Positions 9,172-23,316 of a stretch of 64,000 nucleotides of DNA are shown here, one piece after another. A program made the translations under genes and the position numbers. This DNA is from a virus. The first letter of the stretch is position 1, and every line of letters begins with the position of its first letter. The stretch is taken from the IMG/VR virus record IMGVR_UViG_3300028394_002659; one strand, written 5' to 3'. The notes under the pieces are model-generated. The model ran no database searches. It was not told the DNA's origin and worked only from the letters and a program-made list of their open reading frames with translations.

Positions 9172-10014
9172 TCTGGAAGTGCTAACAAGACAAGTTCTAT
9201 GCATAACACGTGGACAGTCATCTGGGGTACCGGTGGCCAAATGCATCAATGAACGATTGTCCCAAAACACAATATCAAATGGTTTCCATTTGTGTCGATA
9301 AACATATTGTGGCTTGGTGGTATGCTCGAATAAAAATTGCAAAAGTTCTTGACCTTGTTGTTCGGGCAAGCCATCAATCCTGGAAGTAAAATGTGGGTTT
9401 ACTAACAAAGTCTTAAACCCACCTACTGGATGTTGTTGTACAATAGATTGCAGGCGAGGGGGATTTTTAGCCCGCTGTTCTGTAGATAGATCTGGACGAT
9501 AGGGATTTTGAGATTGTAATTCGTCGTACTTATGATAATACACATGCTCGGCTCGCAGGCCTTGCAGTTGTTGTTTCATGTCTGTACTGAGACCATCATA
9601 TGCGGCTTGTTGATCAGCAAACAGGGTATCTCCACCTTGAGCAGGTAACACCTGAGCATGCAAAAATGCTCCTGCATACGGGTATTCTTTCCAACTGCTG
9701 TCAGAGTGCCAGTATAGTCCTGCATCTCGAATACCAATGGGCCGAGAATCTTTGATTACATTGCTCACCACCAGCACTTCAGGATGCCCCGGCAAAGGAT
9801 AATCTAGTACAGGATGATTATATGTTGATAGATTACCAAAATTGCTAGAAAGAGCAATAAGTTGGTCAGGGGTGATTGGTTGATCACGAAATATCAACAA
9901 ATGCTCTTGAAGATGAATTGATTTTAATTCAGCAACTACGTTGTCTTCAAGCGGTTGAGAACAATCAAGACCTATGACTTCTGCGCCAAATGGTCGTAGT
10001 TTAGTAATCTGCAT
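9163..10014 (-). CDS. TauD/TfdA family 2OG-dependent dioxygenase
   Basis: WHSD, GGDTLFAD, WDNRSLMH, RVMHR motifs. Confidence 0.92.
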   Translation of the reverse strand: MQITKLRPFGAEVIGLDCSQPLEDNVVAELKSIHLQEHLLIFRDQPITPDQLIALSSNFGNLSTYNHPVLDYPLPGHPEVLVVSNVIKDSRPIGIRDAGLYWHSDSSWKEYPYAGAFLHAQVLPAQGGDTLFADQQAAYDGLSTDMKQQLQGLRAEHVYYHKYDELQSQNPYRPDLSTEQRAKNPPRLQSIVQQHPVGGFKTLLVNPHFTSRIDGLPEQQGQELLQFLFEHTTKPQYVYRHKWKPFDIVFWDNRSLMHLATGTPDDCPRVMHRTCLVSTSRVA

Positions 10015-10049
10015 GATGCAATTATTTATCTACACTGATATTGTTATAA

Positions 10050-10373
10050 TTATTCAGGATCGACTTGGGCACTGATGATCATTGCCGGAAATTCAAGTCC
10101 TTGGCCTAAATTTCCTGCTGAAACAAGATCAGCCCAGGCTTGTGCTGTGGCTAGATCTGGCCAGGACCGAACCACAGATCTTGGTGAGCTTTCAGACACG
10201 CTTTCAACAACTGATTCACTAACAACATTATTACTTGAAACTCCGTGCGTTGTTGCAAATGTTTCTAAAACTGATTGTGCTTGTGCTTGGAAGACAGATA
10301 TTGCTGTTGTAAAATCGCTTCCAGATAAGTTATGATGGGCAAATCCCCCGTTGACTACAGTAGTTGTACGCAT
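10050..10373 (-). CDS. hypothetical protein
   Basis: AGGAG RBS, TATAAATA late-promoter-like motif upstream. Confidence 0.6.
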   Translation of the reverse strand: MRTTTVVNGGFAHHNLSGSDFTTAISVFQAQAQSVLETFATTHGVSSNNVVSESVVESVSESSPRSVVRSWPDLATAQAWADLVSAGNLGQGLEFPAMIISAQVDPE

Positions 10374-10454
10374 GATAATCTCCTATATGCTTTGAAGTAT
10401 TTATACTAGACAACCCAATAAGGTCCAAGAGTTATGTATTATCAATTACCAATT

Positions 10455-10528
10455 TGGAGCGGGATACGAGAATCGAACTCGTCACTAAACCTTGGCAAGG
10501 TTTCGAGATACCACTTCACCAATCCCGC
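10455..10528 (-). tRNA. tRNA-Gly(GCC)
   Basis: Cloverleaf, anticodon loop TTGCCAA, encoded CCA. Confidence 0.93.
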
Positions 10529-10609
10529 ATTTGAGAAAAACCCTGTCGTATGTGCCAACTTCCGGGAGTGGCCAGCACACAGAGGACAGAGCCGTGTTGC
10601 TTTCGCTTG

Positions 10610-11083
10610 TTAGGCTGCACGTAGACCTTTGAATCGATCTGCGGCATATGAAGCCGCAAACGCATCAGGTTTGACAAAAGGTATAACATTACACACACCC
10701 TTGATGTAACCAATGGCCTGTGAAATCACACAACTTGATCCATGCATTTCGTTGGGATTGATGTCCAGGTGAACTTCAACTTCACGCCCTTCTAGTACTT
10801 CGGCCAGTTTTAGGTACAATTCGCTTACTTTGTACACTTCGGTCATGAGCCGCAAACTGGGGCGACTGGCTCGTTGATCCCAGTCACGCTCACGTTGCAC
10901 TTCACCAAACAATTTGCAACCGTTGTTGCCGTTGATATGAACCACGATAGCCAGCACATAGTCAGCATGCCAAGCACCGTCAACTTTGATACGTTCACTA
11001 TCACAACCAAGATAGATTCGAGTTTCGGGTGTTTGAGTCCGAATGAATTCTGCCACTTGGTCAATGTCTAGTTTTTTCATCAT
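10610..11083 (-). CDS. RNase H-like YkuK family protein
   Basis: IYLGCDS, RLMTEV, EVHLDIN, AASYAAD. Confidence 0.85.
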   Translation of the reverse strand: MMKKLDIDQVAEFIRTQTPETRIYLGCDSERIKVDGAWHADYVLAIVVHINGNNGCKLFGEVQRERDWDQRASRPSLRLMTEVYKVSELYLKLAEVLEGREVEVHLDINPNEMHGSSCVISQAIGYIKGVCNVIPFVKPDAFAASYAADRFKGLRAA

Positions 11084-11123
11084 TTGCCTTCTATTTAACC
11101 TGATAAACATTACAGTTTTATTA

Positions 11124-11200
11124 TGGTGCCCCAAGAGAGACTCGAACTCTCAAAATTTGGCTTCTAAGACCAACACGTATACCAATTCCGTCATCGGGGC
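11124..11200 (-). tRNA. tRNA-Leu(TAG), short variable loop
   Basis: Cloverleaf, loop CTTAGAA, 5-nt variable region, CCA. Confidence 0.88.
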
Positions 11201-11207
11201 TGAATAC

Positions 11208-11281
11208 TGGCACGGGAACTAGGGCTCGAACCTAGAATGACAGAGTCAAAGTCTGTAGTGTTACCATTACACTATTCCCGA
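11208..11281 (-). tRNA. tRNA-Gln(TTG)
   Basis: Cloverleaf, loop CTTTGAC, CCA. Confidence 0.92.
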
Positions 11282-11291
11282 ACAAAAAACT

Positions 11292-11366
11292 TGGTGGATG
11301 AGAGTAGAGTCGAACTACCACTTAACTCCGTATGAAGGAGGCGCACTACCATTATGCTACTCATCC
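11292..11366 (-). tRNA. tRNA with CAT anticodon (Met or lysidine-Ile2)
   Basis: Cloverleaf, loop TTCATAC, CCA. Confidence 0.85.
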
Positions 11367-11368
11367 AT

Positions 11369-11444
11369 TGGGGTGTCTGATGGGGATCGAACCCACGCAT
11401 ATCGGGATCACAACCCGAGGCCTTACCACTTGGCGACAGACACC
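11369..11444 (-). tRNA. tRNA-His(GTG)
   Basis: G-1:C73, loop TTGTGAT, CCA. Confidence 0.93.
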
Positions 11445-11450
11445 GTTGAT

Positions 11451-11527
11451 TGGCCGGTCCTGAGAGATTTGAACTCCCAACTTCCAGTTTCGAAGACTGG
11501 CACTCTATCCAATTGAGTTAAGGACCG
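11451..11527 (-). tRNA. tRNA-Arg(TCG)
   Basis: Loop CTTCGAA, CCA. Confidence 0.92.
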
Positions 11528-11532
11528 CTTAA

Positions 11533-11640
11533 CATAAGCAAACACACTACATCCAGCGAACCCATCTGCTGGCTTAGTTATTAATCGCTACAGGGTAACC
11601 GGAACCCTTCGCTGAGGCGTTAGTAATGTGTTTGCTTATG
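11533..11640 (-). ncRNA. Structured RNA A (18-bp closing stem), unknown function
   Basis: CATAAGCAAACACATTAC pairs with GTAGTGTGTTTGCTTATG; internal hairpins; lies between tRNA-Lys and tRNA-Arg. Confidence 0.6.
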
Positions 11641-11712
11641 GTAGGGGTGCTCGGGAACGATCCGAGTTTTACTGGTTAAAAGCCAGTTACTTCACCTTAA
11701 AGTTTCACCCCC
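11639..11712 (-). tRNA. tRNA-Lys(TTT), non-canonical (A8:U14, A54:U58)
   Basis: All four stems pair; loop CTTTTAA; T-loop ATCGTTC; CCA. Confidence 0.85.
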
Positions 11713-11763
11713 GCTATCTTATCACTCTTGTCACTTGTCATGACAGATCTCCTTTTAAAAAAT

Positions 11764-11837
11764 TGGTAGCCAGAACAAGAATTGAACTTGTAATAATCGC
11801 TTATCAAGCGACCGTTATACCATTTAACTATCCGGCT
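11764..11837 (-). tRNA. tRNA-Ile(GAT)
   Basis: Loop TTGATAA, CCA. Confidence 0.9.
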
Positions 11838-12000
11838 ATAAATATGCGTATGATTACCGCTGACGACGCTATGATATTCCTGTCCCAAGAGGCACAAGGT
11901 GTTTATCAACAACGATTTTATTCCACCACAACTCGCAAGTTCACTCTCAATACCATGCTGATCAACCCACCTAAAGAGTTCAAACTTGATACTACGTTTG

Positions 12001-12076
12001 TGGTGCCTCCTCCAGGTTCCGACCCTGGTTCCCTGGATTTTCAGTCCAGTGCTATGACCACATCAGCTAAAGAGGC
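12001..12076 (-). tRNA. tRNA-Phe(GAA), atypical T-loop
   Basis: Loop CTGAAAA; T-loop GTCGGAA; CCA. Confidence 0.88.
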
Positions 12077-12080
12077 GTAA

Positions 12081-12156
12081 TGGTACATCCTGACGGGCTC
12101 GAACCGCCGACAGCCTCGGTGTAAACGAGGAACTCTACCAACTGAGTTAAGGATGC
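12081..12156 (-). tRNA. tRNA-Val(TAC)
   Basis: Loop TTTACAC, CCA. Confidence 0.93.
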
Positions 12157-12161
12157 ATGTT

Positions 12162-12249
12162 TGGCGGAAGCGGTGAGATTCGAACTCACGGTACCTTTCG
12201 ATACGCTGGTTTTCAAGACCAGAGCCATAGACCACTCGACCACACTTCC
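12162..12249 (-). tRNA. tRNA-Ser(TGA)
   Basis: Long variable arm, loop CTTGAAA, CCA. Confidence 0.94.
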
Positions 12250-12255
12250 TAATTT

Positions 12256-12333
12256 TGGAATAGCGGGTGAGATTCGAACTCACGATTTTAGGGATTTGCA
12301 ATCCCTTGCATTTGACCACTCTGCCACCGCTAT
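12256..12333 (-). tRNA. tRNA-Cys(GCA)
   Basis: Loop TTGCAAA, U73, CCA. Confidence 0.92.
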
Positions 12334-12337
12334 ATAT

Positions 12338-12414
12338 TGGTCCGAGTAGTAGGATTCAAACCTACGACCCTCTGGTCCCAAACCAGATGCGCTATCAGGC
12401 TGCGCTATACTCGG
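12338..12414 (-). tRNA. tRNA-Pro(TGG)
   Basis: Loop TTTGGGA, CCA. Confidence 0.93.
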
Positions 12415-12653
12415 TTAATTTTTTTCTTGATCCACATGCCGAACAATGTACCACAGTAGGCACCTGCCAGGGCTGGAATTAATGCCCAGTGATCTTCGGT
12501 GTAGTTGATCACTGCCACACTGGCTGTGAATGTCACAGCCACAGACCACCATGCGGCCATCATGGCACGATCATCCTGAATTGACTTTACAAAGTAAACA
12601 TAAATCAAATCAGTGGCAAACACTGCCGCAAAAGTTATGAAGTAGGTCCACAT
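12405..12653 (-). CDS. small membrane protein within the tRNA array
   Basis: Three hydrophobic segments. Confidence 0.65.
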   Translation of the reverse strand: MWTYFITFAAVFATDLIYVYFVKSIQDDRAMMAAWWSVAVTFTASVAVINYTEDHWALIPALAGAYCGTLFGMWIKKKINRV

Positions 12654-12654
12654 G

Positions 12655-12882
12655 TTATTTCTTGGTTAATGGAGATTCTTGTGTTTTTTCTATCTCCGGC
12701 GGTTCTTCAAATCTTGCATTGCCACCAAGTCCTTTCCAACTGTCTTCTGTGAAGATTCTAATGGGTCGCCAGTGTCGAGCAATGATGTTGTTGATTACAA
12801 CAAGACCAATTACCACAACAACAAAGCCTAGTGCTGTCAAAACACTACCGGCTAGAAACACTGCCGCTTGATCCATGTCCAT
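12655..12882 (-). CDS. small membrane protein within the tRNA array
   Basis: AAGGA RBS, single TM helix. Confidence 0.65.
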   Translation of the reverse strand: MDMDQAAVFLAGSVLTALGFVVVVIGLVVINNIIARHWRPIRIFTEDSWKGLGGNARFEEPPEIEKTQESPLTKK

Positions 12883-12899
12883 AAGTTTTTCCTTAATTT

Positions 12900-12973
12900 T
12901 GGAGCGGGATAGCGGAATCGAACCGCTGACTCTAACTTGGAAGGATAGGGTAATACCATTTTACGAATCCCGC
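12900..12973 (-). tRNA. tRNA-Gly(TCC)
   Basis: Loop CTTCCAA, CCA. Confidence 0.9.
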
Positions 12974-12982
12974 TTGTTGTAT

Positions 12983-13011
12983 ATTATACTGTGTATAGAC
13001 AGTTTAGTCAA
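12983..13011 (-). promoter_or_regulatory. Internal tRNA-array promoter TTGACT-N17-TATAAT
   Basis: Consensus hexamers. Confidence 0.75.
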
Positions 13012-13024
13012 TGACTTTGAATAC

Positions 13025-13098
13025 TGGAGCGGAATACCAGAATCGAACTGGTGACATGACCTTGGCAAGGTCGCGTTTTACCCCTAAACTAATTCCGC
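13025..13098 (-). tRNA. tRNA-Gly(GCC), second copy
   Basis: Loop TTGCCAA, CCA. Confidence 0.92.
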
Positions 13099-13103
13099 AT
13101 AAG

Positions 13104-13179
13104 TGGTGCCCCCACCATGATTCGAACACGGCACCTACTGATTACAAATCAGTTGCTCTACCGAATGAGCTATAGGGGC
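13104..13179 (-). tRNA. tRNA-Thr(TGT)
   Basis: Loop TTTGTAA, CCA. Confidence 0.94.
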
Positions 13180-13185
13180 AAATTT

Positions 13186-13261
13186 TGGCTCCTCAGGGTG
13201 GGATCGAACCACCGACACCTTGATTAACAGTCAAGTGCAACTACCGCTGTGCTACTGAGGA
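13186..13261 (-). tRNA. tRNA-Asn(GTT)
   Basis: Loop CTGTTAA, CCA. Confidence 0.94.
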
Positions 13262-13269
13262 ATAAACTT

Positions 13270-13359
13270 TGGCGGAACGTTAGGGAGTCGAACCCTATCA
13301 ACAGCGTTAACCATTGTACAGATTAGCAATCTGCTGCCTTACCATCCGGCCCACGTTCC
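13270..13359 (-). tRNA. tRNA-Ser(GCT)
   Basis: Long variable arm, loop TTGCTAA, CCA. Confidence 0.9.
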
Positions 13360-13367
13360 TCTATACT

Positions 13368-13396
13368 ATTATATAGTTAACACCTCATGGTGTCAA
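13368..13396 (-). promoter_or_regulatory. Internal tRNA-array promoter TTGACA-N17-TATAAT
   Basis: Perfect consensus, between tRNA-Tyr and tRNA-Ser. Confidence 0.85.
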
Positions 13397-13404
13397 CAGT
13401 TATT

Positions 13405-13490
13405 TGGTGGAGAGTCAGGGATTCGAACCCCGTATACCGTAAGGTGGAAGATTTACAGTCTCCTGAAGTCGCCAATGCTTCTCACTCTCC
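13405..13490 (-). tRNA. tRNA-Tyr(GTA)
   Basis: Variable arm, loop CTGTAAA, CCA; G8. Confidence 0.9.
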
Positions 13491-13494
13491 AATT

Positions 13495-13569
13495 TGGTGG
13501 ACCGTCCCGGGTTCGAACCGGGGACTGAGGCTTGCAAAGCCACTGTGTTCCCAACTATACCAACAGCCC
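13495..13569 (-). tRNA. tRNA-Ala(TGC)
   Basis: G3:U70, loop TTTGCAA, CCA. Confidence 0.92.
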
Positions 13570-13576
13570 AATTATT

Positions 13577-13653
13577 TGGCGACTCCGAAAGGATTTGAAC
13601 CTCTGACATTTGGTTTTGGAGACCAACGTTCTGCCGGACTGAACTACGGAGCC
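13577..13653 (-). tRNA. tRNA-Trp(CCA)
   Basis: Loop CTCCAAA, CCA. Confidence 0.93.
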
Positions 13654-13675
13654 ATCAACACACTGTTGCCAATGT

Positions 13676-13740
13676 GCGTATCGAAACACTCTACATGGAT
13701 GAACCCACTTGCCTTGAGGCCTGAGAATGCTTCGATACGC
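13676..13740 (-). ncRNA. Structured RNA B (17-bp closing stem), related to RNA A
   Basis: GCGTATCGAAGCATTCT pairs with AGAGTGTTTCGATACGC; shares GCCTCA and TGGGTTC..ATGTAG with RNA A. Confidence 0.55.
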
Positions 13741-13839
13741 TCGGTTTTTTTTGTGTACAAAAACACAAGCCATCCCCGAGGCCGCCCATTTGCAGTTTTG
13801 AGTGATACCGGCTCGCGTTGCCTTGCACTTTGATAACGA

Positions 13840-13887
13840 TCATTGAACGTTATTGTGAATCCATTGCCAATACTCTTCTGTTGTCAT
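13840..13887 (-). CDS. 15-aa mini-ORF MTTEEYWQWIHNNVQ
   Basis: Strong AAGGAG RBS 7 nt upstream of the ATG; just downstream of attenuator 1. Confidence 0.45.
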   Translation of the reverse strand: MTTEEYWQWIHNNVQ

Positions 13888-13906
13888 TCTAGTTCTCCTT
13901 AAAAAC

Positions 13907-13976
13907 AAAAAACCCTGGAGTTTTTAGTTCCAGGGTCTTTGAATTAGATACGATTGCGTACTACGTTAAGACCCTG
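13907..13976 (-). terminator. Attenuator 1: terminator (13907-13936) with competing antiterminator arm (13968-13976)
   Basis: ACCCTGGA/TCCAGGGT stem + U-tract; CAGGGTCTT in the last leader codons pairs 9/9 with AAGACCCTG of the terminator 5' arm. Confidence 0.8.
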
Positions 13977-14076
13977 TGTCTCCTAGAATGATTGCTGTTG
14001 CGCGACCATAGGCATGTGACCAGGCAGATGTCTGACTGAACATATTCTTGGGCGACAAACAGAGTTTCGTTTTCAT
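13966..14076 (-). CDS. Leader peptide 1 (36 aa, leaderless): MKTKLCLSPKNMFSQTSAWSHAYGRATAIILGDTGS
   Basis: ATG 7 nt after TATAAT, no SD; last codons and stop overlap the antiterminator arm. Confidence 0.7.
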   Translation of the reverse strand: MKTKLCLSPKNMFSQTSAWSHAYGRATAIILGDTGS

Positions 14077-14083
14077 AGTATCA

Positions 14084-14112
14084 ATTATAGTTTATTTACC
14101 TTTGTGCGTCAA
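14084..14112 (-). promoter_or_regulatory. sigma70-type promoter TTGACG-N17-TATAAT for leader 1
   Basis: Consensus hexamers. Confidence 0.8.
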
Positions 14113-14153
14113 TCATTTTGGCAAACTTTCTTGTTGTATTTACACAACAGATT

Positions 14154-15284
14154 TTATTCACCTATACAGAAGGGTTTGCTGTAGATTGGTGCCCCGGTAT
14201 CTTTTCCAATCATACTGTTGATTGGGTTGATACTGGTTTCTACCAGATGGTTGCAGAAGTCTTTTTCTAATAATAAATTTTTAATGCCTTTTACATAAAG
14301 ATTAGCCACGTCATTGTGCTTCTTTAGCAAAACATCTAATCCAAGATCAAATCCACAAGAAAGTTCGCCATCAATGCCATCAACATTCACGGGGGCCAAT
14401 TCAAATTTGGATTCGGCGCCTTTTTGTGCAAAACTTGCGCCAGCAAATACTTCATTTTGTCTCGATAAGTTTTTTTGCCATATGCTATACGTAGCACTTG
14501 CGATGTTTTTAAATTTGGAACCATCGGGATCTAACCTGGCCTTGCCTGTATTTGCACTCATACGAAGTTTGAGTATTTTTTTAATCATATGACTTTGTTT
14601 GAGTGCCAACATAGGGTCAGTAAAAAAACATTCAATGTTTTCAAAATTCATTGTGCTCAACAAGGTTCTTGCATCATGGCATGAATAATATTTGTTATCT
14701 TTTTGGAATACTCTAGGTTGTTCGTGTCCAGTAATCAAACACCAGGTTGAACCACCGAACTGGTCAGCACAATAGTCCCACATTACAGAGTCCGTGGTTC
14801 CCATGGCAAATTTAGGGATCATTGAAATATTTTGAAAGATCCAATCTTCTCCTGTTACAATTTGTTGTTTGGCCGCAGGATTAAAACGTTCTTTTACAGT
14901 AATTTTGGTCAGTGGGTCATGATGGTTGTTTTTTAGCCAATCCACATATTGTGAATTATTCCAGGGCTCGTACTTGTCGTTGACCCAAATTACAATTTCA
15001 TCAATGTGTAAATTATTGCGTTTGAACACATTGTAGATTGTGTTACTATCTGTACCGCCACTCCACGACAGCATCACATGTTCATATTTGTTTCTTAAAT
15101 TACACGCATGCTGATCCATCAGTTGATCCAAGGACTCAGCAGGGTCTTGTAACCAATTTAGTTGGTCATTCTGTTGGTCGTGACAAACAAACTCAATAGG
15201 AGTTTTGCTTATAAATGCCTCGTATTTTGCAAGTATATGATTGAAAATTATTTTGCCATTAACACGGAAATAGATAGAGGGCAT
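14154..15284 (-). CDS. PP-loop ATP pyrophosphatase family protein, paralog of 18832-19947
   Basis: WSGGTDS; start moved to MPSIYF so it does not overlap the tRNA. Confidence 0.75.
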   Translation of the reverse strand: MPSIYFRVNGKIIFNHILAKYEAFISKTPIEFVCHDQQNDQLNWLQDPAESLDQLMDQHACNLRNKYEHVMLSWSGGTDSNTIYNVFKRNNLHIDEIVIWVNDKYEPWNNSQYVDWLKNNHHDPLTKITVKERFNPAAKQQIVTGEDWIFQNISMIPKFAMGTTDSVMWDYCADQFGGSTWCLITGHEQPRVFQKDNKYYSCHDARTLLSTMNFENIECFFTDPMLALKQSHMIKKILKLRMSANTGKARLDPDGSKFKNIASATYSIWQKNLSRQNEVFAGASFAQKGAESKFELAPVNVDGIDGELSCGFDLGLDVLLKKHNDVANLYVKGIKNLLLEKDFCNHLVETSINPINSMIGKDTGAPIYSKPFCIGE

Positions 15285-15300
15285 TTGTGTAGCGTATGAT

Positions 15301-15374
15301 TGGATGCGGGGGACAGATTCGAACTGCCGATGCACCTGGCTTATGAGACCGGTGTGGTGACCGCCCTCCCCGCG
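15301..15374 (-). tRNA. Atypical initiator-like tRNA(CAT) with reduced D-arm
   Basis: C1:A72 mismatch, CGCGGGG acceptor, loop CTCATAA, TTCGAAT, CCA. Confidence 0.7.
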
Positions 15375-15383
15375 GTATATTTA

Positions 15384-15623
15384 ATGCTCTGCGTCCCCCG
15401 GCGGTAATTATAGTGTATCAGAAATTTCGTCAAGTTGCCCCAACTAGTCTATTCATCACTTACACCCTCCACCCGCTTCCCGACAGGGACCGTTCTCGTA
15501 TTGCTAACGCCGGTTAGGTTGGACCGCTGATTGCTCAGTGAAACTTTGCTGTTTCAGAACCACCCGTGTGTGTCATCACACTTCTCATCGTCTGGGTCAG
15601 ACTATCCAGTGACGCTGGAACGT
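15384..15623 (-). ncRNA. Large multi-stem structured RNA E (about 240 nt), unknown function
   Basis: GC-rich non-coding interval with several hairpins (GTGTG/CACAC, TGAAAC/GTTTCA, CTGA-GCAA-TCAG, CTAAC/GTTAG). Confidence 0.6.
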
Positions 15624-15629
15624 AGGGGA

Positions 15630-15688
15630 GAGGCCACGGTTGCAGGATCTAGTGCTCCGAAGAGGAAGTGTCCAGGCGGTGTGGCCTC
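15630..15688 (-). ncRNA. Small structured RNA G
   Basis: GAGGCCAC/GTGGCCTC closing stem with internal cUUCGg hairpin, just 3' of tRNA-Asp. Confidence 0.45.
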
Positions 15689-15693
15689 AAACT

Positions 15694-15769
15694 TGGCGGT
15701 CTTAGGGGGTAACGATCCCCACTCTTACGGCGTGACAAGCCGTCGTGCGTCCATGAACACTTTAAGACC
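15694..15769 (-). tRNA. tRNA-Asp(GTC), non-canonical (A8:U14, A54:U58)
   Basis: Loop TTGTCAC; T-loop ATCGTTA; CCA. Confidence 0.87.
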
Positions 15770-15772
15770 AAA

Positions 15773-15925
15773 TTTTTATAGTCAAGCACCGAGAATGCCA
15801 ATTTAGGAGTCCGGTGCTTCCGTTCCAAAGCCGATGCAGTTATATCAGGATCAGTCGCCGGCCGCTGTGACCCGAATAGTGTATGCGTCCATACACGATA
15901 CCTTATCGATGCTTGACTATAAAAA
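15773..15925 (-). ncRNA. Structured RNA C (20-bp closing stem), unknown function
   Basis: TTTTTATAGTCAAGCATCGA pairs with TCGGTGCTTGACTATAAAAA; internal GTGTATG-GACG-CATACAC hairpin. Confidence 0.65.
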
Positions 15926-15928
15926 CAA

Positions 15929-16004
15929 TGGTACTCCGTGGGGGAATCGAACCCCTCCTTACCCGCGTGAAAGGCGAGTGTCCTAACCGATAGACGAACG
16001 GAGC
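15929..16004 (-). tRNA. tRNA-Glu(TTC)
   Basis: Loop CTTTCAC, CCA. Confidence 0.92.
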
Positions 16005-16013
16005 ATGTAGTTT

Positions 16014-16216
16014 TACATTGAGGAACCATTGTGGATCTCGTTCTGCTTGGTTTGCGAGGCCAAGTCACCACGGTCATTACTGCCAGACGATCCGCCGCTT
16101 TTCTGGATCTACTTTTTACAGTAGAGAGCCGACTTCATGACTGATAGCAAGTGGACACCCGCCGGTGTCAATTCACTTCTACCAATGCCTCTAACGGGTC
16201 TGGTAACCTCTTTGTA
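16014..16216 (-). ncRNA. Structured RNA D (about 200 nt) with possible pseudoknot
   Basis: Ends pair (TACAAAGAGGTTACCA / TGGTTCCTCAATGTA); nested stems; CTTGG-CCTCGCAAA-CCAAG loop can pair with a downstream CGAG. Confidence 0.6.
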
Positions 16217-16306
16217 TATTTTAATGATCTGTTGCAAGTAGTCTCGATCGACTTTGTTGCTTTGTTAAGTTCTATTGTAGCAGAGTTTCAATTTATGGTC
16301 TAGCAC

Positions 16307-16374
16307 AAAAAAGAAAACCCTCCGAAGCGGAGGGTCTTTGTTAGTAGTACTTTTGTATTACAGACAAAGCCCCC
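16307..16374 (-). terminator. Attenuator 2: terminator (16307-16339) with competing antiterminator arm (16364-16374)
   Basis: ACCCTCCG-CTT-CGGAGGGT + U-rich tail; GGGGGCTTTGT in the last leader codons pairs with ACAAAGACCCTC (11 bp, one bulge). Confidence 0.75.
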
Positions 16375-16435
16375 AATGGCAATCCCACTCATGTTCTGAG
16401 CGAAGGGTTGTGATGATTGCAGTTGTTTGTTTCAT
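16358..16435 (-). CDS. Leader peptide 2 (25 aa, leaderless): MKQTTAIITTLRSEHEWDCHWGLCL
   Basis: ATG 6 nt after TATAAT, no SD; last codons form the antiterminator arm. Confidence 0.65.
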   Translation of the reverse strand: MKQTTAIITTLRSEHEWDCHWGLCL

Positions 16436-16441
16436 AAGTGT

Positions 16442-16470
16442 ATTATATATGACAAGTGAATAAAAGTCAA
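16442..16470 (-). promoter_or_regulatory. sigma70-type promoter TTGACT-N17-TATAAT for leader 2
   Basis: Consensus hexamers. Confidence 0.8.
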
Positions 16471-16631
16471 GGCTTTTTGGCTCGGTTGCAAGCAGGATCT
16501 CGACAAGCCGTAATTCGTTTGCGATCACAGTCTGGGCAGTCTTTGATTCTGATCCACATGGTGGGCATGAATCTTACAACCTCATTTTTGCCTGGTTTAT
16601 CCCAACTGTCACATTTGATAGCATGTTGCAT
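16467..16631 (-). CDS. small Cys-rich protein
   Basis: AAGGAG RBS; CPDC and CRDPAC motifs. Confidence 0.55.
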   Translation of the reverse strand: MQHAIKCDSWDKPGKNEVVRFMPTMWIRIKDCPDCDRKRITACRDPACNRAKKP

Positions 16632-16701
16632 AATGTCTCCTTGACATACATATACAACGCCGTAGCCCGTCAAAGGGTTTACACAAACTGTGTTACTTTG
16701 C

Positions 16702-17595
16702 TCATTTCTTAGTCAATAGTTTTACTACCTGTTGATACTCACGCTCAATATCACGTGCAAACTCATCGGGTGTTTGTTTTCGGGGAACTCCAGCATGTAC
16801 CACAGTGAGAATTTGTTTTTGCACTTCTTCGTTGGCTCTAGCACTTTCTAGCATGTTGTACAAGCGATCACGTGTGTCTTTGGGGGTTCCCGGTGGCGCC
16901 CAGAACCCAGTCCAGCCTTCTTGGCTGATATTGTACCCAAGTTCCACAAGACTTTTTATACCATTACGTCCCTTTGGGGTTAGCACTGCCAGGCCGTTTA
17001 GTTCTCCAGTGGCAACTCGATCCTCCAACAAGAAAGTAACAGTGGTAACTTCGATACTCTTGTTCATCAATGCCAACATGGCCGCATTGTCACCGTTGTA
17101 GTTCACCATGATGAGATTGGGATTGTTGCCCAGCAATTCTTCAAGTGCAATTCTGGTAATAGCGCCATTGTTGCCCACAGCCACAGTGCGTGTTTTCAAT
17201 GCAGACTTCAGTTGCTCGACTGTGCGGATGTCGGAGTCTTTGCGACTGACTAGCATCTGGCCGTTTGTGGCACCACGCATGAGTGGCACAATCTTTGTCA
17301 TGATTTCGTGGGCCGCGGGGTTACTGGCAGAATTGTAAACCACTGCACTGCTACCGGTATACATCACAGTGTTGCCGTCGGGCTTGGCAGCCATCAACTC
17401 CTGCATGCCAACTAGGCCTTCGGCGCCAGGTTTGTTGACTACTATAGCCTCAACGCCCTGGCGTGCCAATTCCTTGGCATACACACGTGCCGCAAGGTCA
17501 GTGTTGCCCCCGGCCGCATAGGTAACAATAATTTTCAATGGTTCTGCCGCATGAGCAGAAGCCACAAGTAATAATGAGAGTAAAAGTTTTTTCAT
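16702..17595 (-). CDS. Bug/TctC tripartite tricarboxylate transporter substrate-binding protein
   Basis: Signal peptide; IIVTYAAGGNTDLAAR, NKPGAEG, PDGNT, WTGFWAPPGTP. Confidence 0.9.
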   Translation of the reverse strand: MKKLLLSLLLVASAHAAEPLKIIVTYAAGGNTDLAARVYAKELARQGVEAIVVNKPGAEGLVGMQELMAAKPDGNTVMYTGSSAVVYNSASNPAAHEIMTKIVPLMRGATNGQMLVSRKDSDIRTVEQLKSALKTRTVAVGNNGAITRIALEELLGNNPNLIMVNYNGDNAAMLALMNKSIEVTTVTFLLEDRVATGELNGLAVLTPKGRNGIKSLVELGYNISQEGWTGFWAPPGTPKDTRDRLYNMLESARANEEVQKQILTVVHAGVPRKQTPDEFARDIEREYQQVVKLLTKK

Positions 17596-18290
17596 AATTG
17601 ATTGTAATCCAATTCAAAAGGTACGCTGGATTCAGCCAGTTCTTTGAACCGATCTGTGACTAAACCACTCAATCGCAACAGAGCCCTGTGCCAGTATCCA
17701 GCGTTGAAAGTGCTGTGAGCACCTGTGGGCCAATCCCAATGCACAACATCTCCGGTCCGCCAGTGAGTGTAAATTTCGTCTCCAAAAATAATACCTTGTC
17801 CCCAGCGCCAGTCAGTGAGCAATATTAACACACGACTGGCAGTGCGTCTATCATTTTGAAAAGCCGCAAGTTCCTCCTCACTGAATTGAATCTTGTGTAT
17901 ACTAGATTCTTCAGGAGCAATGTAACCGTATCCCAGTTCATCTATATGCAATGGTTGCAACGCACCTGGTACAAGTGTTTGTACTCGACCACTGGGCTTG
18001 CGATAGCCGATCAAATCACCGATACGTTCTATCACGGCAGTATCGGTGACCAACCATCTATCAAAGTCTTTGGGATCTGCTGACTCACCCACAATAGTAC
18101 CAATATCAGTGTCTTTGTACCCTAGTTCTCGAGTCAACTGATCTGCCACTGCCAGACGGCTGATGTGTTTTGCTTCCTGTAAACTGGGAATACTTTGTGC
18201 AATAGTTTGACCGTGACTTAAAAATTCGTTCCACTCCGAATGTGGAGGAATATTGCGGATATTACCTAGGTATTTGTAATGCGTTGCCAT
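17592..18290 (-). CDS. putative 2OG-Fe(II) oxygenase-like protein
   Basis: PLHID...HSTFNAG...R pattern. Confidence 0.5.
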   Translation of the reverse strand: MATHYKYLGNIRNIPPHSEWNEFLSHGQTIAQSIPSLQEAKHISRLAVADQLTRELGYKDTDIGTIVGESADPKDFDRWLVTDTAVIERIGDLIGYRKPSGRVQTLVPGALQPLHIDELGYGYIAPEESSIHKIQFSEEELAAFQNDRRTASRVLILLTDWRWGQGIIFGDEIYTHWRTGDVVHWDWPTGAHSTFNAGYWHRALLRLSGLVTDRFKELAESSVPFELDYNQL

Positions 18291-18307
18291 GAGAAGTTGA
18301 AAATAGG

Positions 18308-18565
18308 AGATAGGTTTATTCTGTTACGAGGAAAACCTATCAAAACCCTAGGCTACAATCAAGCGGCCAATGCGAACTGTGAGTCGTTAGCGGTTACTTT
18401 TGTTTAGTTTTTACGACTATCGCTGTCGTGCTGTCCACTTCAATACTCCTGACCCAATCGATCCTGTGTCATCCCCACCTAAATATACCTCATACACTTA
18501 GGTGGAGATGCCGGGCACTGCCCCCGGGTCTTGAATCCATTTTTATCGGCTTCATACAGCAATAA
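18308..18565 (-). ncRNA. ssrA: Two-piece (circularly permuted) tmRNA, tag ANDSQFALAA
   Basis: Acceptor piece first (T-arm CCGGG-GGCAGTG-CCCGG, CATCTCC-A-CC), hairpin spacer, then GGGGATG 5' end at 18476 (G3:U70); tag frame 18391-18359; promoter 18571-18599. Confidence 0.9.
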
Positions 18566-18600
18566 CTTACAGTATATATTTATACAGGTTGTTTGTCAAC

Positions 18601-18780
18601 CTATTTGGTACTCACATGACATGCGGCCACAATCTGTTTGTTTTGTGCCCGGAATTCTTCACGTTTTTGAACTCGGGCTTGCTCGCATTCTGCCTGAGTT
18701 TTGAACTTGGCCTGTTCGCCATACTCAGGCACCGGTCCTAAGACACTAAAACTCAACACCCAGATCAGAGTCCGGCTCAT
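18601..18780 (-). CDS. small secreted/membrane-anchored protein (59 aa)
   Basis: Manual translation MSRTLIWVLSFSVLGPVPEYGEQAKFKTQAECEQAR...VAACHVSTK. Confidence 0.55.
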   Translation of the reverse strand: MSRTLIWVLSFSVLGPVPEYGEQAKFKTQAECEQARVQKREEFRAQNKQIVAACHVSTK

Positions 18781-18831
18781 GGCAAAATCCTAACTACTGT
18801 ATTTATAGCCCAGTAGTTAAAAATCCACTGG

Positions 18832-19947
18832 TCATGGACCGATACAGTACTCCTTTGACCATGTAAATTTCAAACTGCTAAAACGCATGTCGCCAGATCT
18901 AAACCAGCCGTTGTCCCGTAACCAATTGGTAAATCCAAACTCACTGGTCAAATTATGAAATCCTTTGAGATAGTTTACCGCTGCCGGATTGTTGTCGGAC
19001 AAGTCATGAAGCAGATGTCGATCAGAACTGTGTACATTGCGCCAGTCACCGTGTACCTGTAGTTGCAGTTGATCAAAAGATTCGTTGCCAATTTTTTGTG
19101 TGTGGCTGACTCCGATATAAACTTCGTCGTGTCTTCCGCAAGCAGTGGCCCAGGCACGGTATCCTGCAGGATCTTTGTCCCATTTGGACTCAGCCCAGTC
19201 ATTACTGTACAACGGTTGTGCAGTTTGTTTAATGATGTTTTTAACCGCACGTTTGACCATGTGTGCTTGTTTGATTGCAATCAATGGCTCAAAGAAAAAA
19301 TGTTCAATATAATCATGGCCCATTGTAGGTTGTAGCACCATGCTGAGTTGTCTATGATACCAAGCACCGTCACGATAGATCAGTCTGGGTTTTTCGTAGC
19401 CACCTATGGCTTTCCATGTGTGCCCGGCGTGATTTTTTTCGCACAGAAATTTCACAGCATCTGCAGAACTTGTGTTGCCGTATTTGAGTAGGTCGCCTTT
19501 GTTCTTCCATACCCAGTCTTCGTCGGGCAAATCAATCAGTCGCAGGTCAGTGTCGTGATCATCGTAGCGTGTGATGATTGTGGTTGGATCCCAGTGATTA
19601 TTTTGGATCCAGTATACATTGCGCTCGGGAAACATTTCTGAATCTTCTCCGGCCTTGATGATCAGTTCGTCAATGTGAATATTGTTACGTTTAAAAATGT
19701 TGTAGATAGTATGACTGTCAGTGCCGCCACTCCATAACAGAATCAGTCGCTCATATTTCTCACGCAAGGCAAGAGCATGTTGCGTCATCAAGAAGTCTAG
19801 CGATGCTTCGGGTTCCAGAGTCCAATCAAATTGATCAAACTCATAGTCATAACAGTAAAATTTAAGTTCGTGATTGTTTTTCCAGCAATCTCGCAGGGCT
19901 AGAAACACATTGTTGTAATGTTGCCCGTTTACTTGATATGATACCAT
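18832..19947 (-). CDS. PP-loop ATP pyrophosphatase family protein, paralog of 14154-15284
   Basis: LWSGGTDSHTIYNIFKRNNIHIDE nearly matches the paralog; GYEKPR, EHFF. Confidence 0.75.
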   Translation of the reverse strand: MVSYQVNGQHYNNVFLALRDCWKNNHELKFYCYDYEFDQFDWTLEPEASLDFLMTQHALALREKYERLILLWSGGTDSHTIYNIFKRNNIHIDELIIKAGEDSEMFPERNVYWIQNNHWDPTTIITRYDDHDTDLRLIDLPDEDWVWKNKGDLLKYGNTSSADAVKFLCEKNHAGHTWKAIGGYEKPRLIYRDGAWYHRQLSMVLQPTMGHDYIEHFFFEPLIAIKQAHMVKRAVKNIIKQTAQPLYSNDWAESKWDKDPAGYRAWATACGRHDEVYIGVSHTQKIGNESFDQLQLQVHGDWRNVHSSDRHLLHDLSDNNPAAVNYLKGFHNLTSEFGFTNWLRDNGWFRSGDMRFSSLKFTWSKEYCIGP

Positions 19948-19948
19948 G

Positions 19949-20833
19949 TTATTTTTTAAGTTGATCTCTGTAGTATTCAGTTTCTTTGACGGCCCTGGCA
20001 TTCAAGTCAGCATCTGCTTTGACCACTACAAAACTTCTTTCTGTAAGAGGTTTGGTCAGTTCTGCATCCTGGTTCCATGTTTTGATAATGCTGATCAATT
20101 CTGCATTCTTCAACAAATTGCTGTTGTTGGGAATTGCTGTGGCATACCAAGTCTCAAATTGATATTTTGGCAACACAGTACTCATGGCAGGAATGTCACT
20201 ACGCACAGCCTTGCTGGATGCAAGGAATTTTACTTTGCCTTCTAATCCAGTGTACGCCGCAATCTGATCGTAGCCACAGGGAGTATGACCACCCACAATG
20301 TCCGGAATCATCTGGCCTGTTCCTTTGTAGGGCACTGGTACAAATTTAGTGCCGTAGGTGGAGTTGATTTGTTTGAGTTCGATTTCACCGTGGCTGTTGC
20401 TGACACCACACACAGTTTCTTTTTTCTTTGCTGATTCAATCAGTTCTCGGAACGTTTTGACTTCACCAGATTCGGGAGTGATAAAAACCATTGGGTTGGT
20501 AACAGATGGTCCTAGCAGTTGTGTTTTTGTGGCATAGATGTTTTCTCTATTGAGCAACACATTGGAAAATACAAAGTTTGCAGAACTTGCAACAAATATA
20601 ATATTGTCTCGTTTTTCCACAGCAATGTTCAGAGCAATGTCTCCGTTGGCACCGGGGTGATATACCACCACGTTGTCATGTCCCTTGTTCATCAATGCCT
20701 TTGATAAACTACGTGCAGTGATATCAATTGCACCACCTGGCGGTGTTGGAACAACAATAGTGATTGGGTCTCCGGCAAATACTGTGGCCGAAAATGCCAA
20801 AGCAAAAATGAATTGTGTGAATTTTTTGATCAT
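19949..20833 (-). CDS. Bug/TctC family substrate-binding protein
   Basis: Signal peptide; IVVPTPPGGAIDITAR, PGANG, VPYKGTG. Confidence 0.88.
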   Translation of the reverse strand: MIKKFTQFIFALAFSATVFAGDPITIVVPTPPGGAIDITARSLSKALMNKGHDNVVVYHPGANGDIALNIAVEKRDNIIFVASSANFVFSNVLLNRENIYATKTQLLGPSVTNPMVFITPESGEVKTFRELIESAKKKETVCGVSNSHGEIELKQINSTYGTKFVPVPYKGTGQMIPDIVGGHTPCGYDQIAAYTGLEGKVKFLASSKAVRSDIPAMSTVLPKYQFETWYATAIPNNSNLLKNAELISIIKTWNQDAELTKPLTERSFVVVKADADLNARAVKETEYYRDQLKK

Positions 20834-20864
20834 GGTTTCTCCTAAAAGTCTATTATACACAATT

Positions 20865-20980
20865 GCTAGTAGGAGGTCTACATACGGTGCGGCGTTCTGA
20901 GCATAGTTATGTCAGTAAAAGGGTTACTACCCCAGGCGTCACTGGAAATACCGACGTCAGCCTGTTGCTGGCGTTACAGA
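20865..20980 (-). promoter_or_regulatory. Structured 5' leader (riboswitch-like) after a TATAAATA motif
   Basis: GC-rich hairpins (CAGC/GCTG, CGTC/GACG, GGGT/ACCC) in an otherwise AT-rich intergenic context. Confidence 0.4.
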
Positions 20981-20991
20981 AATATTTATAA

Positions 20992-21015
20992 GAAAGCGGC
21001 CGAAGCCGCTTTTTT
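20992..21015. terminator. Intrinsic terminator
   Basis: AAAGCGGC-CGAA-GCCGCTTT hairpin (UUCG loop on the minus strand) with flanking A/T tracts. Confidence 0.8.
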
Positions 21016-21989: not shown

Positions 21990-22023
21990 GTATATCTCCT
22001 AGGGGGTTTTGTACAATTATTTA

Positions 22024-22545: not shown

Positions 22546-22551
22546 AGTATT

Positions 22552-23313: not shown

Positions 23314-23316
23314 TAC

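Follow-up and report, generated by a model that had tools for sequence, protein, structure and literature searches.

The window analysed here, a stretch of 64,000 nucleotides from the virus record IMGVR_UViG_3300028394_002659 of IMG/VR, belongs to a 148,928 bp contig of a giant freshwater phage and carries, on its minus strand, two tRNA blocks that are each preceded by a promoter, a short open reading frame and an intrinsic terminator. An earlier note, made from the sequence alone, had proposed that both short ORFs are leaderless-peptide attenuators that switch on the tRNA genes behind them, and we confirmed that the two units exist as described, with the corrections given below.

Organisation of the two units

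The first unit comprises the following features, all on the minus strand:

14112-14084 (-), promoter P1, TTGACG-17-TATAAT, with a TAAATA element in the spacer
14076-13966 (-), leader ORF 1, 36 codons, its ATG 7 nt after the -10 and so probably leaderless
14022-14020 (-), the single Trp codon of leader 1 (codon 19), proposed as the main sensor codon
13976-13968 (-), antiterminator 5' strand, formed by the last codons of leader 1 and the first base of its stop codon
13963-13945 (-), small spacer hairpin enclosed by the antiterminator
13940-13901 (-), intrinsic terminator 1, with a 5' arm (13940-13929) shared with the antiterminator, a 9-nt loop and a U-tract
13887-13840 (-), Shine-Dalgarno-led 15-codon mini-ORF containing E-E-Y-W-x-W, directly after terminator 1
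13839-13654 (-), conserved structured leader RNA before tRNA-Trp, including a hairpin at about 13676-13740
13653-13405 (-), tRNA block 1, proposed to be gated: tRNA-Trp(CCA), tRNA-Ala(UGC) and tRNA-Tyr(GUA)
13396-13368 (-), internal consensus promoter that starts the next tRNA block (Ser, Asn, Thr, Gly)

Promoter P1 matches the consensus at 11 of 12 positions and the internal promoter at 12 of 12. The tail of leader ORF 1, CAGGGTCTT, whose last T starts the stop codon, is the exact 9-nt complement of AAGACCCTG (13939-13931) in the 5' arm of terminator 1, and this pairing appears in the minimum-free-energy fold of the whole leader. Terminator 1 was missed on the minus strand by a simple scan because of its 9-nt loop, but folding shows it at -16.1 kcal/mol for the hairpin alone; the spacer hairpin was also recovered by folding, and a 4-bp stem can be drawn by eye in the aligned relatives. 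The earlier note did not mention the roughly 250 nt of conserved structured RNA and the mini-ORF that lie between terminator 1 and tRNA-Trp. The mini-ORF is present in five close relatives with synonymous changes, is cleanly absent in four others and is also seen in one further sequence of the comparison (L110), while the structured RNA shows a compensatory G-C to A-U change and a loop deletion in relatives, recurs as a motif after many family terminators and contains no promoter of 10/12 or better.

The second unit has the same order of elements:

16470-16442 (-), promoter P2, TTGACT-17-TATAAT
16435-16358 (-), leader ORF 2, 25 codons, its ATG 6 nt after the -10, with a central E-H-E-W-D
16374-16364 (-), antiterminator 5' strand of unit 2 (codons 21-24 of leader 2)
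16341-16304 (-), terminator 2 with its extended 5' arm and U-tract (hairpin called at 16338-16314)
16302-16274 (-), promoter-like site after terminator 2, TAGACC-17-TACAAT with a TG extended -10
16004-15694 (-), tRNA block 2, proposed to be gated: tRNA-Glu (16004-15929), a structured spacer and tRNA-Asp (15769-15694)
15381-15308 (-), initiator-like tRNA(CAU) with a C1-A72 mismatch and its own promoter-like element, TTGACG-15-TATAAT

Promoter P2 scores 11/12 and the hairpin of terminator 2 alone folds at -16.6 kcal/mol. In the nascent-RNA fold the tail of leader 2 pairs with the arm (16341-16329) as 5 + 6 bp around a 2-nt bulge; the pairing is therefore imperfect, although homologous modules have perfect 9-10 bp helices at this position. 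Leader ORF 2 is conserved in six relatives, and the spacers of block 2 are about 96% conserved with compensatory changes. The promoter-like site after terminator 2 scores only 9/12 but is conserved in relatives and could bypass the terminator, as the earlier note cautioned, and give basal expression. The initiator-like tRNA that the note counted among the tRNAs of this block was read from the sequence and is called by neither ARAGORN nor Rfam in this window; ARAGORN calls a tRNA-Met at the corresponding position in two of the sequences compared (L015 and L016), whose sequence differs there. As the note stated, leader 1 has no Glu codon and leader 2 has no Tyr codon.

We then scanned the whole contig for a promoter followed by an ATG within 4-11 nt, an ORF of 15-60 codons and a terminator, and found exactly these two modules in 148,928 bp and none in 20 shuffled genomes.

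A family of related modules in uncultivated phages

Leader 1 belongs to a large family in uncultivated phages, and in total about 75 related modules were available for comparison. The terminator hairpin pattern was found in 100 viral contigs, and 65 of 83 unique copies have the full module, with TTGACA-17-TAyAAT, an ATG 6-10 nt later, an ORF of 21-48 codons and a stop codon fixed 24-34 nt before the hairpin. The copies without a leader ORF follow long ORFs and have no tRNAs downstream, or are truncated. The TAAATA element is present in the spacer of 54 of 61 family promoters. Comparison of ORF pairs gave pN/pS values of about 0.1-0.8, mostly 0.25-0.6, and indels are in frame; 22 of 63 leaders start with two Met codons, and some relatives carry a Shine-Dalgarno site instead of a leaderless start but keep the ORF. 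The modules head tRNA arrays, and in 39 of 53 of them, including unit 1 here, no promoter of 10/12 or better lies between the terminator and the first tRNA.

Two competing RNA helices

The earlier note had suggested testing whether the arm pairing shows compensatory changes in related phages, and this is what we observed. The 3' end of the ORF pairs with the 5' arm of the terminator using different sequences in different lineages: in 50 modules with distinct arm extensions, the tail pairs with its own arm at a mean of -13.95 kcal/mol, against -9.78 +/- 0.34 for shuffled arms (z = -12). On a fixed alignment of 31 sequences, two-sided changes fill 40 cells against 21.6 +/- 4.6 in shuffles, a value reached by none of 500 shuffles, and slid registers score far lower. 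Several Watson-Crick pair types occur per helix position, and the stop codon lies inside the helix in 43 of 64 modules. The two alternative folds are nearly isoenergetic: the minimum-free-energy fold of the full transcript is the terminator in 30 modules and the antiterminator in 35, whereas ribosome-free nascent RNA forms the antiterminator in 60 of 65. In this window the two folds are at -50.2 against -50.0 kcal/mol for leader 1 and -39.8 against -38.2 for leader 2; the antiterminator of leader 2 is weaker than that of leader 1. We did not establish a conserved pause or anti-antiterminator hairpin.

Leader codons and downstream tRNAs

The second comparative test suggested by the note, whether the codon content of the leader follows the identity of the downstream tRNAs, was also positive. 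The central Trp codon encodes the only residue besides Met1 that is conserved across 32 subfamily representatives and always lies 17-25 codons from the start, and tRNA-Trp is the most enriched neighbour, being the commonest first, top-2 and top-3 tRNA (21 of 38 arrays in the top 3). Across 62 modules, a tRNA among the first five whose amino acid is absent from the leader occurs once in all, for Val (Met excluded). In no module is tRNA-Trp, Tyr or Glu among the first five while its amino acid is missing from the leader (W p = 7e-4, Y p = 6e-5, E p = 2.5e-4), and a permutation using one representative per subfamily gives 100.4 of 101.4 matches against 90.4 +/- 2.6 (p <= 0.0025). The effect size is modest (about 99% observed against about 90% expected), and since related modules share ancestry, the number of independent events is smaller than the counts suggest; when only codons at least 16 nt upstream of the helix are counted, the association weakens (z = 2.0, p about 0.03).

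Interestingly, where tRNA-Tyr sits in block 1, leader 1 has a Tyr codon and leader 2 usually has none, and where tRNA-Tyr sits in block 2 the pattern is reversed. The leader-2-type family has a central E/Y/D motif ahead of Glu-Tyr-Asp arrays, and a leader in which 15 of 34 residues are Ser, Leu or Arg precedes Ser-Arg-Leu-Leu-Leu tRNAs. By contrast, 17 of 55 Trp-containing leaders have no tRNA-Trp among the first five tRNAs, and leader 2 of the window has two Trp codons but no tRNA-Trp behind it. Leaders use 18.0 distinct amino acids against 16.3 expected, and their codons show no bias towards the isoacceptor encoded downstream.

Proposed mechanism

We consider, with moderate confidence and in the absence of expression, ribosome-profiling or transcript-end data, that both units are ribosome-mediated transcription attenuators that gate phage tRNA genes. 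In this model, host RNA polymerase starts at a near-consensus promoter, essentially on the A of the leader's AUG, and a 70S ribosome loads on the leaderless 5' end and follows the polymerase, although leaderless translation is usually inefficient in Gram-negative hosts. A ribosome that keeps pace would sit on the last codons and stop codon when the 5' arm of the terminator emerges and would mask the complementary tail, so that the terminator hairpin forms and transcription ends after about 170 nt. If the ribosome is absent, slow or stalled at an upstream codon, the tail would pair first with the 5' arm, and this antiterminator would let the polymerase read on into the tRNA block. The likely stall sites are the invariant Trp codon in the leader-1 family and the Glu/Tyr/Asp codons in the leader-2 family, although regulatory codons are mostly single. 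As the leaders use nearly all amino acids and in particular, with the one Val exception, those of the tRNAs just downstream, the switch most likely reports decoding capacity for those tRNAs and feeds back on their supply, the phage probably making more tRNA when decoding lags; translation itself, stalling, and the direction and size of the response are inferred. The further proposal of the earlier note, that the system is a counter-defence, is likewise inferred, and the idea that host anticodon nucleases are the trigger has no evidence here.

Alternative explanations

The alternative that survives best, although we consider it unlikely, is that the modules are attenuators but are not codon-specific and report only whether a ribosome is coupled to the polymerase, which reflects general translation capacity, the supply of 70S ribosomes or initiator tRNA, or the stage of infection, the match between leader codons and downstream tRNAs then being a by-product of very diverse leaders and shared ancestry. 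The antitermination expected by default without a ribosome, the use of nearly all amino acids (so that a stall at almost any codon would be enough), the lack of isoacceptor bias and the weaker association for upstream codons all favour this reading. However, the Trp codon is invariant while the rest of the peptide diverges, Trp-less leaders head arrays with no tRNA-Trp among the first five, Tyr codons and tRNA-Tyr switch reciprocally between the two leaders, and the leader enriched in Ser, Leu and Arg precedes Ser, Arg and Leu tRNAs.

It is more doubtful that each module is an independent small gene, with its own strong promoter and terminator, that produces a micropeptide, an abundant small RNA of about 170 nt, or both, the tRNAs being expressed by constant leaky read-through or from upstream transcription without switching. 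The pN/pS below 1 indicates some selection on the peptide sequence, and attenuator-derived RNA and peptide products can act in trans in Sinorhizobium (PMC6614838, PMC7298713). Nevertheless, this reading explains neither a covarying helix that competes with the terminator and includes the stop codon, nor the fixed distance from stop codon to hairpin, nor the codon-tRNA association; in addition, only one residue is conserved across the family, and the modules associate only with tRNA arrays, which mostly lack any other promoter.

The modules might also be mobile promoter/terminator cassettes that mainly promote recombination and shuffling of tRNA blocks, perhaps resembling the promoter-early stem-loop (PeSL) elements of T4-type phages, with an incidental ORF. 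The hairpin and promoter are indeed nearly identical across very divergent phages, the tRNA order behind them is highly shuffled and the same hairpin also ends ordinary long genes, but this appears improbable because the ORF is kept open and in frame with a coding signature, because neither the tail:arm covariation nor the codon-tRNA link is expected for a recombination element, and because the order here is promoter-ORF-terminator and not terminator-promoter. Least likely is a TnaC-like arrest peptide in which the conserved Trp residue of the nascent chain senses a small molecule such as free tryptophan, as suggested by a single invariant Trp at a nearly fixed distance from the N-terminus, since the distance from Trp to the stop codon varies from 11 to 26 codons with no other residue conserved, a stall at the stop codon would here favour termination, and the leader-2-type and Gly/Glu/Leu/Asp-type leaders lack Trp altogether.

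Comparison with known systems

Phage tRNA arrays are known to replace host tRNAs that are lost or cleaved during infection (eLife 2023, PMC10264068; T5 tRNA-Lys against PARIS, PMC11464382; phage tRNAs against retron effectors, PMC11555353). These studies concern the tRNAs themselves and, going by their titles and abstracts and by keyword searches, none of them describes a cis-regulatory sensor that controls expression of the phage tRNAs; we found no publication of the present system.

Leaderless leader peptides as such are not new, as 14 were predicted in Deinococcus deserti (PMC4007540) and polycysteine leaderless short ORFs were shown in mycobacteria (bioRxiv 10.1101/834739). There too, the transcription start coincides with the AUG of a short sensory ORF in which stalling controls downstream genes, but those leaders control aminoacyl-tRNA synthetase or amino-acid genes in cellular genomes, the mycobacterial case acts on translation by unmasking a ribosome-binding site and not on an intrinsic terminator, and neither gates tRNA genes or occurs in phages.

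T-box riboswitches are likewise cis-acting terminator/antiterminator switches that respond to the state of a specific tRNA, but they bind uncharged tRNA directly and are not translated, whereas the phage module, in the model proposed, needs a translated ORF; no T-box or other Rfam family matches here. The tnaC arrest peptide of the E. coli tryptophanase operon is also a short leader with one critical Trp that controls transcription termination downstream, but TnaC senses free tryptophan through the nascent chain, with fixed Trp-Pro-stop spacing, and blocks Rho, while here the spacing to the stop codon is variable and the terminator is intrinsic.

In the leader-peptide transcription attenuators of amino-acid operons (E. 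coli trpL, hisL, pheL, thrL and ilvL), a short translated ORF precedes an intrinsic terminator whose 5' arm can instead pair with an upstream segment, and ribosome position decides which helix forms; a Trp codon is the conserved element of the leader-1 family. The phage modules differ from them in that the regulated products are tRNA genes of a phage and not biosynthetic enzymes, the mRNA is probably leaderless, and the antiterminator strand is the ORF's own 3' end plus stop codon. Their sensor codons are mostly single, not the runs seen in classical attenuators, the leader samples about 18 of the 20 amino acids, no 1:2 pause hairpin was established and, without translation, the default state would be read-through.

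Two leader modules in front of tRNA genes

All genes of interest are on the minus strand. ARAGORN finds 25 tRNAs in the window, and we combined these predictions with a promoter consensus scan and with the positions of short ORFs, which gave the following elements for the two units:

14112-14084 (-), promoter TTGACG-17-TATAAT of unit 1
14076-13966 (-), leader ORF 1, 36 codons, with its ATG 7 nt after the -10 hexamer
13653-13405 (-), tRNA-Trp, tRNA-Ala(UGC) and tRNA-Tyr
13396-13368 (-), perfect internal promoter
16470-16442 (-), promoter TTGACT-17-TATAAT of unit 2
16435-16358 (-), leader ORF 2, 25 codons, with its ATG 6 nt after the -10 hexamer
16004-15694 (-), tRNA-Glu and tRNA-Asp

The last nine bases of leader 1, ending in the first base of its stop codon, are the exact complement of the 5' arm of the terminator, whereas the tail of leader 2 pairs with its arm as 5 + 6 bp around a 2-nt bulge. 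The two terminator hairpins, of -16.1 and -16.6 kcal/mol, are followed by U-tracts. Using a scan of the whole 148,928-bp phage contig for the combination of a promoter, an ATG within 4-11 nt, an ORF of 15-60 codons and then a terminator, we recovered exactly these two sites, and 20 shuffled genomes returned none. The arrangement described in the earlier note, in which a promoter, a short ORF and a terminator precede a tRNA block twice, is therefore real and is not a chance arrangement.

Other elements of the region were noted around these two units:

18298-18613 (-), a phage-encoded two-piece (permuted, betaproteobacterial-type) tmRNA, with a TTGACA-17-TATACT promoter at 18599-18571
14154-15290 (-) and 18832-20001 (-), two paralogous proteins (34% identical) with an SGGTDS PP-loop-like motif and no Pfam or PHROG family
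16702-17595 (-), a TctC/Bug-family periplasmic solute-binding protein with a signal-peptide-like N-terminus (Pfam PF03401, E = 2e-23)
15694-15769 (-), the tRNA-Asp called by ARAGORN, which has an unusual T-loop (ATCGTTA instead of TTCRANY) and is not matched by the Rfam tRNA model at E <= 1
15308-15381 (-), a tRNA-like gene with a CAU anticodon, a C1-A72 mismatch and an irregular D-arm, missed here by ARAGORN and Rfam
15450-15690, 15775-15925 and 16010-16270 (-), the spacers around tRNA-Glu and tRNA-Asp

Relatives carry tmRNAs with ANDSQFALAA or ANDEKFALAA tags next to the same PP-loop-like gene, and homologues of the PP-loop-like proteins, which could be tRNA-modifying enzymes, sit beside tmRNA and tRNA genes in many phage contigs. 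The solute-binding protein, together with the tmRNA type, hints at a betaproteobacterial host. At the position corresponding to the tRNA-like gene, ARAGORN calls tRNA-Met in two of the loci collected, L015 and L016, whose sequence differs there. The spacers around tRNA-Glu and tRNA-Asp are about 96% identical to a relative whose flanking protein is only 82% identical and show several compensatory stem changes, so they are structured RNAs. An Rfam search of 10000-23500 at E <= 1 gave only tRNA and tmRNA matches and weak chance hits, and nothing in either leader or in the structured spacers.

A family of related modules in viral contigs

No cultured phage matches this region, as megablast, blastn and tblastn searches against GenBank phages found only tRNA matches or nothing. 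A PP-loop-like protein encoded between the two units led, however, to related viral and metagenome contigs that share both leaders. The terminator-1 hairpin pattern alone hits 100 viral contigs, which yield 83 unique copies, and 65 of these carry the full module: a TTGACA-17-TAyAAT promoter, an ATG mostly 6-10 nt after the -10 (5-11 nt over the 65 modules, with three at 0), an ORF of 21-48 codons and a stop codon always 24-34 nt before the hairpin core. The remaining 18 copies fall into four groups: modules whose -10 hexamer was missed by the pattern used, variants in which the same ORF is preceded by a Shine-Dalgarno site instead of being apparently leaderless, truncated copies, and plain terminators after long genes, with no tRNAs downstream. 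The hairpin pattern in bacterial genomes hit only three contigs in two metagenome-assembled genomes (one Haliscomenobacter and one Flavobacteriales), which may be mis-binned phage DNA.

By contrast, the leader-2 terminator pattern matched only 2 viral contigs. A generic module scan of the loci already collected nevertheless found a second family, homologous to leader 2, that has other terminator sequences and perfect 9-10 bp tail:arm helices.

Leader-1-type promoters share a GG before the -35 and a TAAATA element inside the 17-nt spacer (54 of 61 family promoters; also 14084-14112 (-) here). By eye, the other promoters of the window lack the TAAATA element, which could be a regulator binding site.

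Coding signature of the leader ORFs

The ORF is kept open in 65 modules and looks translated, although on in silico signatures only and without direct proof. Pairs of leaders of equal length give pN/pS mostly between 0.25 and 0.6, length differences between aligned relatives are in frame, and the Shine-Dalgarno-led variants keep the ORF. In addition, 22 of 63 leaders begin with two Met codons, which suits an mRNA that must start with AUG even if the start site, here inferred from spacing alone, shifts slightly.

The alternative helix and the terminator

The ORF tail pairs with the extension of the 5' arm of the terminator, using different sequences in different lineages. With one representative for each of 50 distinct arms, own pairing averages -13.95 kcal/mol, against -9.78 +/- 0.34 for shuffled arms (z = -12, reached by none of 5000 shuffles). 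Most helix positions show two to four Watson-Crick pair types, and the helix includes the stop codon in 43 of 64 modules. On a fixed 31-sequence alignment, the named helix has 40 cells changed on both sides against 21.6 +/- 4.6 in shuffles, and its covariation score is 0.226 against 0.165; both values beat all 500 shuffles and every slid register. The U-tract can pair with A or G in the arm extension, so it does not need to covary, but the tail does covary, which shows that the tail:arm helix is itself selected.

The two folds are balanced. In full transcripts, the minimum-free-energy fold is the terminator in 30 modules and the antiterminator in 35, and in this window the two conformers differ by 0.2 kcal/mol for leader 1 and by 1.6 kcal/mol for leader 2. 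In ribosome-free nascent RNA that ends before the 3' arm, the arm pairs with the ORF tail in 60 of 65 modules, so that the default appears to be 'on', and we did not establish a conserved competing upstream hairpin of the pause or anti-antiterminator (1:2) kind that would enforce termination when the leader is not translated. Termination therefore needs something to cover the tail when the arm emerges, and a ribosome on the last codons or the stop codon would do exactly that.

Unit 2 of this window has the same design but is weaker. Six relatives keep the E-H-E-W-D core, and one T-A to C-G compensatory change occurs in the distal helix, with C-A intermediates. Several amino-acid changes preserve an internal hairpin, as read by eye. 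A conserved TAGACC-17-TACAAT site with a TG extended -10 follows the terminator and may give basal expression.

Genes downstream of the terminators

Almost every module with enough downstream sequence heads a tRNA array. In 39 of 53 modules, including unit 1 here, no promoter of 10/12 or better lies between the terminator and the first tRNA, and those tRNAs must therefore be made by read-through.

The interval between the terminator and the tRNAs contains further elements:

13840-13887 (-), a 15-codon mini-ORF with a strong Shine-Dalgarno site and an E-E-Y-W-x-W motif, directly after terminator 1
13740-13839 (-), and directly after the terminator at many loci, a conserved RNA motif with a GGC-AACGNGA-GCC hairpin inside an AGTGCA stem, followed by AAATGGGCGGCC

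The mini-ORF is a clean presence/absence polymorphism among relatives and its stop codon sits, by eye, in the loop of a conserved 6-bp hairpin; it could be a second sensor. The RNA motif lies between the terminator and the first tRNA in many family members. In many relatives (L004:18702-18875, L031:3338-3514 and other loci of the collection) a conserved protein of 52-59 aa (starting M..DYxKLNDRIV) with a Shine-Dalgarno site follows the terminator, before the tRNAs, for which no convincing Pfam or PHROG family was found.

Leader codons and downstream tRNAs

As clustering of the peptides at 50% identity lumped almost everything together, subfamilies were defined by eye, a choice that is subjective. 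An alignment of 32 subfamily representatives conserves only Met1 and one central Trp, which lies 17-25 codons from the start and 11-26 codons from the stop. tRNA-Trp is the commonest first, top-2 and top-3 tRNA behind Trp-containing leaders: 21 of 38 distinct arrays have it in the top three, against about 6 expected if all tRNAs were equally likely. However, 17 Trp-containing leaders have no tRNA-Trp among the first five tRNAs.

Across 62 modules of both families, a tRNA among the first five has its amino acid missing from the leader only once (a Val tRNA 2 kb downstream, Met excluded). Fisher tests give W 7e-4, Y 6e-5, E 2.5e-4, D 0.014 and C 0.023, and with one representative for each of 24 subfamilies, matches are 100.4 of 101.4 against 90.4 +/- 2.6 expected (p <= 0.0025). 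The expected match rate is already about 90%, and related modules inherit leader and array together, so independent events are far fewer than modules. When the count is restricted to codons far enough upstream to leave the tail free, the signal weakens, and splitting the leaders into sensor-competent and tail-proximal parts gave only a weak contrast (z = 2.0 against z = 1.3). Leader codons are not biased towards the isoacceptor encoded downstream, 47% of them being cognate to the downstream tRNA, about the same as the background in all leaders, which neither supports nor excludes tRNA-specific sensing. The leaders of the window itself contain no codon runs.

Interestingly, Tyr codons and tRNA-Tyr switch reciprocally in genomes that carry both modules. 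Where tRNA-Tyr sits in block 1 (this window and its close relatives), leader 1 has a Tyr codon and leader 2 has none, with one exception; where tRNA-Tyr sits in block 2, leader 2 has one to three Tyr codons and leader 1 has none, or a single one at its extreme C-terminus. Among other leader types, Trp-less leaders of the Gly/Glu/Leu/Asp type head Gly-Glu-Leu-Asp arrays, and one leader with 15 of 34 residues Ser, Leu or Arg precedes Ser(UGA), Arg(UCU) and three Leu tRNAs; six of its seven Ser codons are UCN, and it has one AGA codon. Leaders are unusually varied in composition, using 18.0 distinct amino acids against 16.3 expected, with Trp present in 97% (54% expected) and Cys in 81% (41% expected).

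Proposed mechanism and comparison with known systems

The mechanism that we consider most likely, in which translation, stalling and the direction of the response are inferred, is that transcription starts on the AUG and that a 70S ribosome follows the polymerase. A ribosome that reaches the last codons would mask the tail, and the terminator would form, whereas a ribosome that is missing, slow, or stalled at Trp (leader-1 type) or at Glu, Tyr or Asp (leader-2 type) would let the tail capture the arm, so that transcription continues into the tRNA block. This would be a negative feedback on tRNA supply. As a further inference, transcripts that enter from upstream genes would carry the leader AUG without a Shine-Dalgarno site and away from the 5' end, and would not be translated and would read through.

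A more specific reading, which we regard as doubtful although it is not excluded, is that each leader is a codon 'manifest' of the tRNA block it gates, a block being induced specifically when one of its own tRNA species is depleted, for example by a host anticodon nuclease. When a tRNA gene moves between blocks, its codon would be gained in one leader and lost in the other, as seen for Tyr. This would give the phage a demand-driven counter-defence, as the earlier note proposed, acting block by block, but the counter-defence idea is speculation.

Phage-encoded tRNAs have been known for more than 50 years and their purpose is still debated, between codon compensation, replacement of degraded host tRNAs and escape from tRNA-cleaving defences (PMC10264068, PMC11464382, PMC11555353), while almost nothing is known about how their expression is controlled. 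If the proposed reading holds, a widespread cis-acting sensor that couples ribosome progress on a sampler ORF to transcription of the tRNA genes would mean that these phages measure decoding capacity and adjust tRNA supply by feedback. It would be, to our knowledge, the first leader-peptide attenuator described that controls tRNA genes, full-text literature searches having found no description of attenuation in front of phage tRNA genes, and it would be a compact, portable part that reports the availability of a chosen aminoacyl-tRNA. The family offers about 75 natural variants.

T-box riboswitches are characterised by a stem I with a specifier loop and by the conserved T-box sequence, and the Rfam search of 10000-23500 did not recover this family. 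PeSL-type mobile regulatory cassettes of T4-type phages, in which a stem-loop would be followed by an early promoter, flanking ordinary Shine-Dalgarno-led genes, do not correspond to the order found here, which is promoter, probably leaderless ORF, terminator, with an ORF tail that covaries with the terminator arm. A TnaC-type arrest peptide has a fixed spacing between the critical Trp and the C-terminal Pro and stop codon, whereas here the Trp-to-stop distance varies from 11 to 26 codons and no conserved Pro is present. The mechanism class proposed is classical leader-peptide attenuation, and leaderless leader peptides have already been predicted in Deinococcus (PMC4007540) and shown in mycobacteria (bioRxiv 10.1101/834739).
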